Shown: in pieces, positions 5,653 through 54,373 of the stretch
How the letters are laid out: each line of letters opens with the position of its first letter
Numbering within the stretch: position 1 is the stretch's first letter
Source of the DNA: Escherichia phage SUT_E420
Sequence record: OQ990039
Strand: one strand, 5' to 3'
DNA: 64,000 nucleotides
Notes under the pieces: model-generated
Told to the model about the DNA's origin: nothing
Seen by the model: only the letters and a program-made list of their open reading frames with translations
Database searches by the model: none
Position numbers and translations under genes: made by a program

Positions 5653-5847
5653 ATGTGTTGCAGAAAATCTGTTTCGTGCTGCCCAGTGCCTGTAGCACGT
5701 TGTTGCTCTCCAGCAATGTTTACGCAAATACCGGCGTTCAATCCCTTTGCCTTTAAGCCTACTCTTATCCTGCCCCCTAGAGTAGATTTTCAGTCAAGAT
5801 TGGCCTCCCGTATGGGTGGTTGCTGTACACCGAGAGTATGGTTCTAA
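5653..5847 (+). CDS. small Cys-rich protein with four CC doublets (64 aa)
   Basis: Ribosome-binding site AAGGAGG; sequence MCCRKSVSCCPVPVARCCSP...GGCCTPRVWF; followed directly by a terminator. Confidence 0.45.
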   Translation: MCCRKSVSCCPVPVARCCSPAMFTQIPAFNPFAFKPTLILPPRVDFQSRLASRMGGCCTPRVWF

Positions 5848-5859
5848 ACCAAAAACAAA

Positions 5860-5893
5860 AGCCCCTGCCGAAAGGTAAGGGGCTTTTTCTTTT
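5860..5893 (+). terminator. rho-independent terminator
   Basis: Stem AGCCCCT/AGGGGCT with 11-nt loop followed by TTTTCTTTT; an identical copy at 6037-6070 is the contig-overlap artefact. Confidence 0.65.
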
Positions 5894-5910
5894 GCCTTAA
5901 ATACAGAAAA

Positions 5911-51698: not shown

Positions 51699-52120
51699 TA
51701 TTTAGTTACCCCATCACTGATAAATACTTTACCCTCCATTATACGAAAGGAGCTAATTGCAGATCCTATAACATCTCTAGTCATAATTATATCATAGTAT
51801 CCTGCGAATCGCTGACGAGGGTTATATTTATCTCTATCTTTAGATGCTCTAGCCCCTATATTTTCCACAGATTCTACTGGCAAACTTATAGCTACAGCCC
51901 CTTGAGCAGCATCAATAATATTAGTAGTAAAGGATGCTAATATCTCCGCATTCTCATCTAGGCTATTTTTTATAGTACCCCTTAGAGAATACCCGGTTAA
52001 GTTAACGGGGGTATTTGTAGGTGGATAAGTACTATCATCAACATCTAAGAACTGCATCATTAAACCATATGGTACTTTCTCATCTATTACTAAATCTATA
52101 ACTCTATTTTCAGTACTCAT
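51698..52120 (-). CDS. tail collar protein (T5 p132-like)
   Basis: 140 aa, between the pb4-like gene and the tail fibre; size and position match T5 p132 from memory. Confidence 0.45.
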
Positions 52121-52123
52121 TAT

Positions 52124-54373
52124 TTACCTTATATGGATGTACCCGTTTTGCAGGTCTATCTTCATTCTGTAATAGGCTTCCGGATTATCAGATAATGCAG
52201 CGTTTCTATCATAAATAACGTTAACACCGATCTGAGATAAGAAGGCATTATTTGCTACAATCTTACTGGCGGTTACCGTACCATTAACTATCATATCGCC
52301 ATGCAGTACCATTGCTGGGTTAACCCAACCGGAACCATTCCATTGACGAGTAAATGCAGATTGCGGAGCATTACTATTAAACTCTGTCAATACATCATAT
52401 CTAACTGGAGGACTACCAAAGTTATTCTGGAAGAAGGCATTAGCCTGCCCATCATCCCAACCACCAAGACCAGGAATACCTAAGGAATACATTCCAGGAC
52501 CACGTTGTCCATCATGTCCTATAGTACCTTCAGTACCACTCCACTGAACTACATCAGACCAGCTAGTACCTGCAAGTAGCTTATTAGTAACTGGGTCAAG
52601 TGTACCCGTAGTCGCATAGATATTTTGTGTCATATCTGTACGATTAGGTGGAGTTTTTGACCAACCAGGAGGCGGATAATCTTGTTCTAGTGGCTTTGCT
52701 GGAAGTGCAGTTGATATCTTATAAACAAATACTGTTTGCTTGCCCTGTATACCTGTTTGGATATCTACATCGCCATTTGGTGTTCCAATTACTACTCCAC
52801 TAGAAATACGTAGTACATCACCATCATAACGAATCCACTGTGTGGCATTACCAATGTCTAACTTAGCTTTGGCAGAGGTATTATCCATGCCCATCCAAAT
52901 ACCGGAGTTATTATCCCCCCAAGATTTACCTTGAGTGTAAATTGCTGGATTATCCTTACCGGATAAGTTAGTCATGATAAAATTCGCAGCATTAATATCT
53001 CTAGTAATTACTTTACCATCAACGTTAACAACACGGTTTATAGGATCAAAAGAAATAGGTGCTTTTCCCTCTTCATCTAGCAGACCAATGTTAATAGCAC
53101 CAGTAGCTGCATCGATTAAGAATGTCTGTCTCCAGATTTCTCCATCTTTCATGCTGCCCTTAATAAAGGCATAGTTAACATCAATACCAGTCTCATTGAC
53201 AAAGCTGTTATCTAGAGGAGTATCTTCATTCAATATAAATGTTACAGGAGCTGATTCTGTTATATCTTGTTTATTTGGTCCCCAGGCAATTGATGATACC
53301 TTAAAGGTATGTTCAACTTTCCATGGGAATGATATAATTGTTGCAGCTCTGGCAGCACCAACGTTTATCTTTTGAGCTTTAGCCCAGCCAGTCTTAGCGT
53401 ATTCTTCAGAATTTATATATGTAACCAAGAACTCACGAACATTAGCACCACCACCGCGTTCCCAATCCCACTCAATTCTAACATCATATCGTTCTTTACC
53501 ATCAGCAATTCGTGCAGCTTTAAAAACAATATTGATAGGTGCAGTAGGAGGAACAAAATTATAAGCTACTGTTAAAATATTAGGGAATTCATAGTACCCA
53601 GAAGAATCAACTGTAACACCATCAGGCATAGTTACTTGACCAGATATTCTGATCTTATAATCTCCGATAGGAACTCCACCAAATTTAATAGTAGAACCTA
53701 AAGCCCCAATGTAATACTTAGTCCAAGGACTGTCTTCAGTAGCTGTACTTTTTAACTCAATAGTACAGTAGCTTGCTTCACCAGTTGTTTCTACGACAAC
53801 TATCGGTGCACCTACCCCAACATCCACAGGTTCTGATTCAGATCTTGCTGCAACAATTATTGGCTTCTCTTTTGTCCTAAAGTTAGTCTCATTAGAGAGA
53901 TTGATACCAATCTTAGCCTCTAGCAGTTCAGAATCAATAATAGAGTCGTAGAAAGCCCCTTGAATCTCGTAAGAGGTTGAAGGGGTCAGGTTATTAATCA
54001 TTATGAAGAAAGTATCTATACCAGTATAATCACGTCTATCTATACTTTCTCCTGTCTTTAACCAAAAAGATCTACCAATAANNNNNNNNNNNNNNNNNNN
54101 NNNNNNNNNNNNNNNNNNNNNNNNNNNNNNNNNNNNNNNNNNNNNNNNNNNNNNNNNNNNNNNNNNNNNNNNNNNNNNNNNGAAGAAAGTATCTATACCA
54201 GTATAATCACGTCTATCTATACTTTCTCCTGTCTTTAACCAAAAAGATCTACCAATAACGTCATAGTCAGTATATATAGAGTGCTGGACATATGCCATTG
54301 TATATCCAGTCATTATACTATTTAAGACCATTTTGGCTGGTGCATTATTCGAAATCATTAAATGGATGCCCAC
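52124..54373 (-). CDS. baseplate/tail tip protein (T5 pb4-like)
   Basis: Large structural ORF downstream of the pb3-like gene; contains the duplication artefact at 54082-54181 (true length about 690 aa). Confidence 0.5.
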   Translation of the reverse strand: MGIHLMISNNAPAKMVLNSIMTGYTMAYVQHSIYTDYDVIGRSFWLKTGESIDRRDYTGIDTFFXXXXXXXXXXXXXXXXXXXXXXXXXXXXXXXXXXIGRSFWLKTGESIDRRDYTGIDTFFIMINNLTPSTSYEIQGAFYDSIIDSELLEAKIGINLSNETNFRTKEKPIIVAARSESEPVDVGVGAPIVVVETTGEASYCTIELKSTATEDSPWTKYYIGALGSTIKFGGVPIGDYKIRISGQVTMPDGVTVDSSGYYEFPNILTVAYNFVPPTAPINIVFKAARIADGKERYDVRIEWDWERGGGANVREFLVTYINSEEYAKTGWAKAQKINVGAARAATIISFPWKVEHTFKVSSIAWGPNKQDITESAPVTFILNEDTPLDNSFVNETGIDVNYAFIKGSMKDGEIWRQTFLIDAATGAINIGLLDEEGKAPISFDPINRVVNVDGKVITRDINAANFIMTNLSGKDNPAIYTQGKSWGDNNSGIWMGMDNTSAKAKLDIGNATQWIRYDGDVLRISSGVVIGTPNGDVDIQTGIQGKQTVFVYKISTALPAKPLEQDYPPPGWSKTPPNRTDMTQNIYATTGTLDPVTNKLLAGTSWSDVVQWSGTEGTIGHDGQRGPGMYSLGIPGLGGWDDGQANAFFQNNFGSPPVRYDVLTEFNSNAPQSAFTRQWNGSGWVNPAMVLHGDMIVNGTVTASKIVANNAFLSQIGVNVIYDRNAALSDNPEAYYRMKIDLQNGYIHIR
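54082..54181. other. assembly gap (100 N) flanked by identical 77-bp copies
   Basis: 54005-54081 is identical to 54182-54258. Confidence 0.85.

Follow-up and report, generated by a model that had tools for sequence, protein, structure and literature searches.

Ten N-runs flanked by identical 77-bp sequences in the record of the T5-like Escherichia phage SUT_E420 are almost certainly unmerged contig overlaps

The stretch of DNA analysed here, referred to as the window, comprises 64,000 nucleotides of Escherichia phage SUT_E420 (OQ990039), and was compared with three relatives, SUT_E1520 (OQ885479.1), SUT_E520 (OQ990040.1) and T5_ev212 (LR597659.1), with which it shares the order of its genes: tRNA cluster, nucleotide metabolism, replication, D11-D15 recombination and tail genes. 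The best matches are T5-like phages, and the records retrieved are classified as Demerecviridae; Tequintavirus. Every gene involved could be identified, because nucleotide identity to annotated genomes is 99.95-100%. The window belongs to a T5-like phage (Tequintavirus) practically identical to SUT_E1520 and SUT_E520, and appears to come from a short-read assembly scaffolded by hand.

Twelve runs of exactly 100 N were counted in the window. Comparison of the bordering sequences, suffix against prefix, revealed that in 10 of the 12 the 77 bp upstream of the gap are repeated downstream with 100% identity: these are the runs starting at 5911, 27525, 42797, 43455, 44192, 44824, 45694, 46690, 47262 and 54082, exactly those for which the preliminary description had reported the duplication. 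At each of them 77 bp is the longest and the sole suffix/prefix match of at least 10 bp, and the identity between copies ends exactly at the contig ends. The duplications are not attributable to chance, because the probability of an exact 77-bp match is about 4^-77 per gap. Each junction 77-mer has exactly two copies in the window, and none in reverse complement was found there; a scan of the window for exact repeats of at least 30 bp returned the ten pairs, all at offset 177. The only other exact repeats of this size are short internal ones within a tail-fibre gene, at about 50979-51330.

Two junctions leave the length of reading frames unaffected. Junction 1 (5834..6087), formed by a 77-mer at 5834-5910, Ns at 5911-6010 and a second 77-mer at 6011-6087, is intergenic, lying between a plus-strand CDS of 64 aa, which ends at 5847, and a convergent minus-strand CDS at 6140-7087; a terminator-like hairpin is present twice owing to the duplication. 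Junction 3 (42720..42973, N 42797-42896) follows the D11 stop codon (42769-42771) and extends no ORF: its first copy includes the last 17 codons of D11, the stop codon and a terminator hairpin, which is thus duplicated.

The remaining junctions involve genes of replication, recombination and tail. Junction 2 (27448..27701, N 27525-27624) falls within the gene for the replication-origin-binding protein/helicase (27046-29460, plus strand), and junction 4 (43378..43631, N 43455-43554) within SbcD/D12 (42985-44139, plus strand). Junction 5 (44115..44368, N 44192-44291) coincides with the overlap of the SbcD stop and the SbcC start, the SbcC ATG at 44120 being repeated at 44297. SbcC/D13 also contains junctions 6 (44747..45000, N 44824-44923) and 7 (45617..45870, N 45694-45793). 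Junction 8 (46613..46866, N 46690-46789) lies within D14 (46493-47152, plus strand), junction 9 (47185..47438, N 47262-47361) within the D15 flap endonuclease gene (47152-48204, plus strand) and junction 10 (54005..54258, N 54082-54181) within the pb4 straight-fibre gene (52124-54358, minus strand).

At the other two N-runs, 29064-29163 and 38551-38650, no flank overlap was found among suffix/prefix matches of at least 10 bp, and sequence is genuinely missing. The former, also located in the origin-binding protein/helicase gene, replaces 652 bp that SUT_E1520, SUT_E520 and T5_ev212 all possess, a net loss of 552 bp; the latter, in the DNA polymerase gene (37469-39661, plus strand), replaces 475 bp, a net loss of 375 bp. 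Both net losses are multiples of 3.

Since 177 equals 3 x 59, the affected ORFs had been expected to stay in frame, and they do: naive translation crosses every one of them without meeting a stop. The further claim of 59 false codons for every affected ORF does not concern the junctions at 5911 and 42797, which are outside ORFs, and the 33 X residues that it includes are in fact 33 or 34, according to codon phase, accompanied by 25-26 duplicated residues. Similarly, the SbcD/SbcC pair, D14, the flap endonuclease, pb4 and a "large ATPase", which is the T5 replication-origin-binding protein/helicase, had been correctly listed as affected, but SbcC carries three junctions (44192, 44824 and 45694) and gains 177 false codons from its first ATG, not 59.

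The junctions were collapsed by deleting one 77-bp copy and the Ns at the ten sites, for a total of 1,770 bp removed, and the genes were translated again, as the preliminary description had proposed. SbcD changes from 384 aa in the record to 325, D14 from 219 to 160, the D15 flap endonuclease from 350 to 291 and pb4 from 744 to 685, while SbcC becomes 612 aa long; these proteins regain the lengths found in T5_ev212, with 0 internal stops and 0-1 residue differences each. The prediction that collapsing would restore the frame in each case was borne out for these genes; the helicase gene keeps its genuine gap at 29064, which collapsing does not repair. Gene callers unwilling to cross N-runs truncate the affected genes, rather than lengthening them; annotations of this kind in the sibling SUT_E520 include D14 (195 bp), the flap endonuclease (483 bp) and the DNA polymerase (936 bp).

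The collapsed window is contiguous with its relatives. Alignment to the gap-free SUT_E1520 showed neither mismatch nor gap, identity being 100.000% over 23,934 bp, a span with eight junctions, and over the 5,389 bp that include the ninth (27525); the tenth (5911) is contiguous in SUT_E520, where a single copy is present. Over the same 23,934 bp, identity to T5_ev212, also gap-free, is 99.954% without gaps, and nine junctions are spanned by this phage, which diverges more between about 27.4 and 29.7 kb of the window (96.6% over the contig at 27625-29063, higher elsewhere). The segments flanking the gaps map to coordinates overlapping by exactly 77 bp in SUT_E1520 and SUT_E520 (100%) and in T5_ev212 (99.95%); at junction 2 this is true in all three. 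Order and orientation of the contigs are collinear with T5_ev212 and SUT_E1520, with no rearrangement.

Both siblings are 100.000% identical to the window over every shared segment. Unlike the window, with its 12 N-runs, SUT_E1520 is annotated as complete and has no N-run in the 45 kb examined, whereas SUT_E520 has N-runs of its own, mostly at other positions. The reverse test gave the same picture: of the 15 gaps in the examined part of SUT_E520, 11 carry this 77-bp duplication, and wherever such a gap is absent from the window, the window sequence runs through without interruption. Junctions 7 and 10 are found as identical unmerged joins in SUT_E520 as well; at the former, T5_ev212 and SUT_E1520 are contiguous.

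Constant overlap length, exact identity, single copies in gap-free relatives and restoration of genes upon collapse are thus all found together. As a whole, the ten N-runs are almost certainly best explained, on the sequence comparisons above, as zero-length gaps between contigs overlapping by 77 bp, that is, as an artefact of assembly and scaffolding. The preliminary description had likewise read them as unmerged contig overlaps, a reading supported by the gap-free SUT_E1520 at nine sites, by SUT_E520 at the tenth and by the restored gene lengths.

For 150-bp reads, 77 is the largest k in the default list of SPAdes. The paper describing the siblings reports 150-bp reads, assembly with SPAdes 3.15.3 and manual joining of contigs in SnapGene, and identical 77-bp contig ends have been described for SPAdes assemblies (PMC8767329, PMC5671560). 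SPAdes with k = 77 is therefore the probable producer of the record. Contigs derived from a de Bruijn graph correspond to its edges, and neighbouring contigs overlap by exactly k bases, 77 in the window, because two edges meeting at one vertex share its k-mer. The depositors would then have arranged the contigs along a reference and linked them through the usual 100-N spacer for unknown length, leaving the shared k-mer untrimmed. Each junction accordingly contains 177 spurious positions, the 100 Ns and one surplus 77-mer, around a true gap of zero, and the true sequence is regained by removing one copy and the Ns. The overlaps known from de Bruijn (SPAdes) assemblies, such as the 55-, 77- or 127-bp ends of circular contigs, are similarly exact and of a constant length equal to the final k; they disappear when the same genome is assembled without gaps, and need trimming before joining. 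In the circular case, however, the overlap lies at both ends of one contig, whereas in the window it occurs at ten joins inside a scaffold built by hand, each hidden by 100 Ns which make a zero-length gap resemble missing sequence.

Different readings of the duplications must be weighed against this one. Were the 77-bp direct repeats real, they would border inserts that escaped sequencing, for instance mobile elements or genes for homing endonucleases, and the Ns would represent real sequence; scattered HNH/homing endonuclease insertions do occur in T5-like genomes, and phage MM-1 has HNH genes in the same region, which is all that speaks for this reading. Target-site duplications and attL/attR sites also resemble the window in having two identical copies around other sequence, but the ten unrelated 77-mers share one length and enclose only Ns. 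All ten repeats are, moreover, 100% identical; nothing separates the flanks of the single copy in SUT_E1520 (100.000%) at nine sites, nor in SUT_E520 at the tenth; eight of the sites would break essential conserved genes, which have full reference length once collapsed; and SUT_E520 shows the 77-bp pattern at other positions, where the window is contiguous. Real repeats around an inserted element were rejected on these grounds, only Ns lying between copies that are single in 100%-identical siblings, and this reading is already effectively refuted, its residual probability being negligible. Repeats are the commonest cause of forks in de Bruijn graphs, and dispersed genomic repeats of at least 77 bp might have tangled the graph, with the consequence that joins could be wrong and the scaffold mis-ordered. 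Each 77-mer is, however, confined to its own junction on either strand of the 64-kb window (about 45 kb of the genome lies outside it), and the contigs are collinear with T5_ev212 and SUT_E1520, which makes such tangling very improbable.

A separate question is why the contigs broke where they did. At 12 of 14 junction vertices, a base directly adjoining the 77-mer, on one side or the other, is polymorphic among the five T5-like phages of a panel (background 0.22, binomial p = 7e-7), a count which covers the junctions of the window and of SUT_E520 in the 41-55.5 kb region and is a proxy, measuring variability among database T5-like phages, not within the read set. The signal is sharp at offset 0, with 12 matches as against 0-7 at the other offsets from -12 to +12. 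The junction at 27448 also adjoins a variable site, while no polymorphic flank site was found in small phage panels for those at 5834, 42720 and 46613. Contig breaks adjoining variable T5-like sites suggest that the reads included a second, related genotype. The graph may have forked at the junction vertices because of a closely related Tequintavirus differing at the base next to the 77-mer, whose source may be a mixed lysate or carry-over between samples. On balance, we favour the view that the stock or library held two co-propagating Tequintavirus genotypes, with contig breaks marking their points of divergence; in this same joint reading, and with the same reserve, these points would be concentrated in the recombination genes D11-D15 and in the tail-fibre gene pb4. 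The same artefact could also arise with no second genotype, if errors in the reads, very high depth or dips in coverage had fragmented the graph. Phage data sets of great depth tend to fragment; of the sibling libraries, whose phage is apparently the same, the two fragmented ones broke mostly at different positions, the third, SUT_E1520, is gap-free in the 45 kb examined, and the three junctions with no polymorphic flank site fit this explanation as well. Random errors, however, would not favour naturally variable T5-like sites, as 12 of 14 junctions do at the exact flank only, and dips would leave real gaps or overlaps shorter than k, not overlaps of exactly that length. We consider errors or coverage a possible but rather unlikely cause.

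Candidate partners for the fork were sought among sequenced phages. SUT_E1620, an Epseptimavirus from the same study, was rejected as a contaminant, since 0 of the junction 77-mers of the window occur in its first 100 kb (genome size 113.9 kb), a stretch which includes the homologous region; a single SUT_E520 junction 77-mer is present, with identical flanks. A variant similar to T5_ev212 was also discarded: its 11 mismatches (38.6-64 kb) all lie at least 136 bp from contig ends, and none falls at the 78th base from a contig end. MM-1, Elw, PNJ1902 and OSYSP, judged by an exact 77-mer with a differing flank, each explain only 1-3 junctions, and were used only as a panel of variable sites, no single database phage being accepted as partner. 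None of the database phages examined combines the full set of junction 77-mers with the alternative base at the flank.

As an artefact, the pattern is of low biological interest, and its value lies in curation. The record overstates genome length by 1,770 bp within the window and shows zero-length joins as unknown sequence, and the products of the origin-binding helicase, SbcD, SbcC, D14, flap endonuclease and pb4 genes are cut short or else lengthened by X and duplicated residues. Such fragments reach protein databases, where they may be taken for new short variants, duplicated domains or pseudogenes. The ten gaps can be repaired by computation alone; only for the other two (652 and 475 bp) are new data required, unless the sequence is taken over from SUT_E1520, which is 100% identical. 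Checking N-runs for exactly duplicated flanks of one constant length k is also a simple automatic screen for other scaffolded phage records. Breakpoints adjoining naturally variable sites may, in addition, provide a cheap, read-free sign of a mixed stock, which is relevant to phages intended for biocontrol. [quoted passage not shown]

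Twelve N-runs, each of exactly 100 N, interrupt the window, and at ten of them (starting at 5911, 27525, 42797, 43455, 44192, 44824, 45694, 46690, 47262 and 54082) comparison of flank suffixes and prefixes found the 77 bp on the 5' side repeated exactly on the 3' side, as the preliminary description had claimed. No second suffix/prefix match of at least 10 bp was present at these ten junctions, and the same comparison revealed no flank overlap at the other two N-runs (29064-29163 and 38551-38650). Within the window, every junction 77-mer is confined to its own two flanking copies, no reverse-complement copies being found, and a search for every exact repeat of at least 30 bp returned the ten junction pairs, every one at an offset of 177: a single exact repeat length and a single exact spacing, shared by ten unrelated sequences, are not attributable to chance. 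The only other exact repeats of this size are short, in-frame ones (50979-51330) within a 922-aa tail-fibre gene (48930-51698, minus strand), with internal repeats at offsets of 21, 63, 84 and 147 bp.

By its sequence, the window belongs to a T5-like phage of the genus Tequintavirus, family Demerecviridae. In the replication-to-tail region its identity to Escherichia phage T5_ev212 is 99.9%, and it is 100% identical to SUT_E520 (OQ990040.1, "partial genome") and SUT_E1520 (OQ885479.1, "complete genome"), with no mismatches over about 38.7 kb of the latter and full identity over every segment shared with the former. SUT_E420 (OQ990039) and these siblings are near-identical phages deposited by one Australian study; being indistinguishable, the three are probably one phage, repeatedly isolated. 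[quoted passage not shown] The tRNA region is of the usual T5 type, with nine genes (Asp, Asn, Cys, Phe, Trp, Glu, Tyr, Leu and Ser) clustered on the minus strand at 394-3409 and a separate tRNA-Arg(tct) at 7122-7196, also on the minus strand; the gaps leave all of them intact.

At every one of the ten gaps, the flanking segments map to sibling or reference coordinates with an overlap of exactly 77 bp: it is seen at nine junctions in T5_ev212, nine in SUT_E1520 and seven in SUT_E520, these being all those where SUT_E520 is contiguous; at the other three SUT_E520 is itself gapped, by a true gap around 42797 and, at 45694 and 54082, by the unmerged join that the window also has. In total, 1,770 bp are lost when one 77-bp copy and the Ns are deleted at each of the ten sites. 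So collapsed, the window aligns to gap-free SUT_E1520 without mismatches or gaps over 23,934 bp, spanning eight junctions, and over 5,389 bp, spanning junction 27525; the 23,934-bp alignment to T5_ev212, gap-free as well, likewise covers eight junctions and is ungapped and 99.954% identical. Across junction 5911, SUT_E520 is contiguous and carries one copy of the 77-mer. In the reverse test, 11 of the 15 examined 100-N gaps of SUT_E520 showed a 77-bp flank duplication, and the window is contiguous at those SUT_E520 gaps not common to both records. The reading of the repeats as unmerged contig overlaps is thus supported, and they are, on these comparisons, a known type of scaffolding artefact, not a phage feature.

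For the sibling phages, the published methods give 150-bp reads, assembly in SPAdes 3.15.3 and manual joining of contigs in SnapGene. In assemblers based on de Bruijn graphs, neighbouring contigs have in common the k-mer of the vertex at which they meet, and with 150-bp reads the default k series of SPAdes ends at 77. Contigs would have been put in reference order and concatenated via a conventional 100-N spacer, the 77-bp k-mer being left untrimmed; such joining would generate exactly the structure seen. Identical 77-bp contig ends have been reported for other SPAdes assemblies (PMC8767329, PMC5671560).

An overlap of exactly k implies that the graph forked at that vertex, and various sources of the forks may be considered. 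Contamination by SUT_E1620, an Epseptimavirus from the same study, was rejected, the window junction 77-mers being absent from the first 100 kb of its 113.9-kb genome, and so was a T5_ev212-like variant, as none of the 11 mismatches to T5_ev212 between 38.6 and 64 kb adjoins a contig end. When the short contigs were aligned to four other T5-like phages, mismatches recurred exactly 78 bases in from contig ends, at the 78th base. To quantify this, the two bases directly adjoining each 77-mer were scored for variability in a panel of five phages at the 14 junction vertices within 41-55.5 kb, of which the window supplies eight and SUT_E520 alone the other six. One of the two was variable at 12 of 14 vertices, always on a single side, against a background of 0.22 (binomial p = 7e-7). 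Shifting the tested positions from -12 to +12 gave 0-7 matches at other offsets, versus 12 at offset 0. The flank base is variable also at junction 27525 (77-mer from 27448), while panel variation was not found at junction 5911 (77-mer from 5834). In the window, the variable bases abutting junction 77-mers are 27447, 43377, 44369, 44746, 45871, 47439 and 54004. Random sequencing errors would not favour naturally variable sites, so a second genotype is the most likely source of the forks; on balance, we favour the presence in the reads of another Tequintavirus closely related to the first, introduced through a mixed lysate or carry-over.

The two runs without duplicated flanks are true gaps: 652 bp of the siblings and T5_ev212 are missing at 29064-29163, and 475 bp at 38551-38650. 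Because the net losses, 552 and 375 bp, are multiples of 3, the frame is kept, and translation still runs through the ORFs of the origin-binding helicase and of DNA polymerase, hiding the loss of about 184 and 125 residues, respectively. Splicing in the SUT_E1520 sequence yields proteins of 929 and 855 aa. Two small contigs, measuring about 806 and 629 bp with their overlaps, were probably omitted from the scaffold. Divergence from T5_ev212 is raised at about 27400-29700, within the helicase gene: identity is 96.6% over the 27625-29063 contig, as opposed to about 99.9% elsewhere, and 12 more mismatches lie beyond it, up to 29662. This patch, edged by junction 27525 and true gap 29064, is common to all three SUT assemblies and looks like a recombinational mosaic.

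Collapsed ORFs were translated and compared with T5_ev212 proteins: all have the T5_ev212 length, differ by 0-1 aa and lack internal stops. Restored lengths are 257 aa for D11, 325 for SbcD (384 uncollapsed), 612 for SbcC/D13 (789), 160 for D14 (219), 291 for the D15 flap endonuclease (350) and 685 for pb4 (744), so that the proposed check, collapsing and re-translating, gave the expected result for SbcD, SbcC, D14, flap endonuclease and pb4. The predicted in-frame read-through of affected ORFs, with 59 extra codons including 33 X, stands with two amendments: each gap contributes 33-34 X, and SbcC reaches 789 aa because three junctions fall within it. Two junctions leave ORF bodies untouched: junction 5911 lies between convergent genes and junction 42797 3' of the D11 stop codon. 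Each of these two non-coding 77-mers includes a GC-rich hairpin resembling a terminator, AAAAGCCCCTGCCGAAAGGTAAGGGGCTTTTT in 5834-5910 and GAGGGGCTTCGGCCCCTTT in 42720-42796; lying inside the duplicated segment, these hairpins produce spurious second terminators in the deposited sequence. In the depositors' Prokka annotation of SUT_E520, genes are truncated at N-runs (D14, 195 bp; flap endonuclease, 483 bp; DNA polymerase, 936 bp; portal, 483 bp), and the practical damage is thus truncation as much as padding. Artefact sites in that record (OQ990040.1, 67674-102102) mostly differ from those of the window, and the same repair is possible.

Overall, the original observation is confirmed and its interpretation supported, with minor corrections; the 77-bp artefact is of value for curation and of low biological interest.
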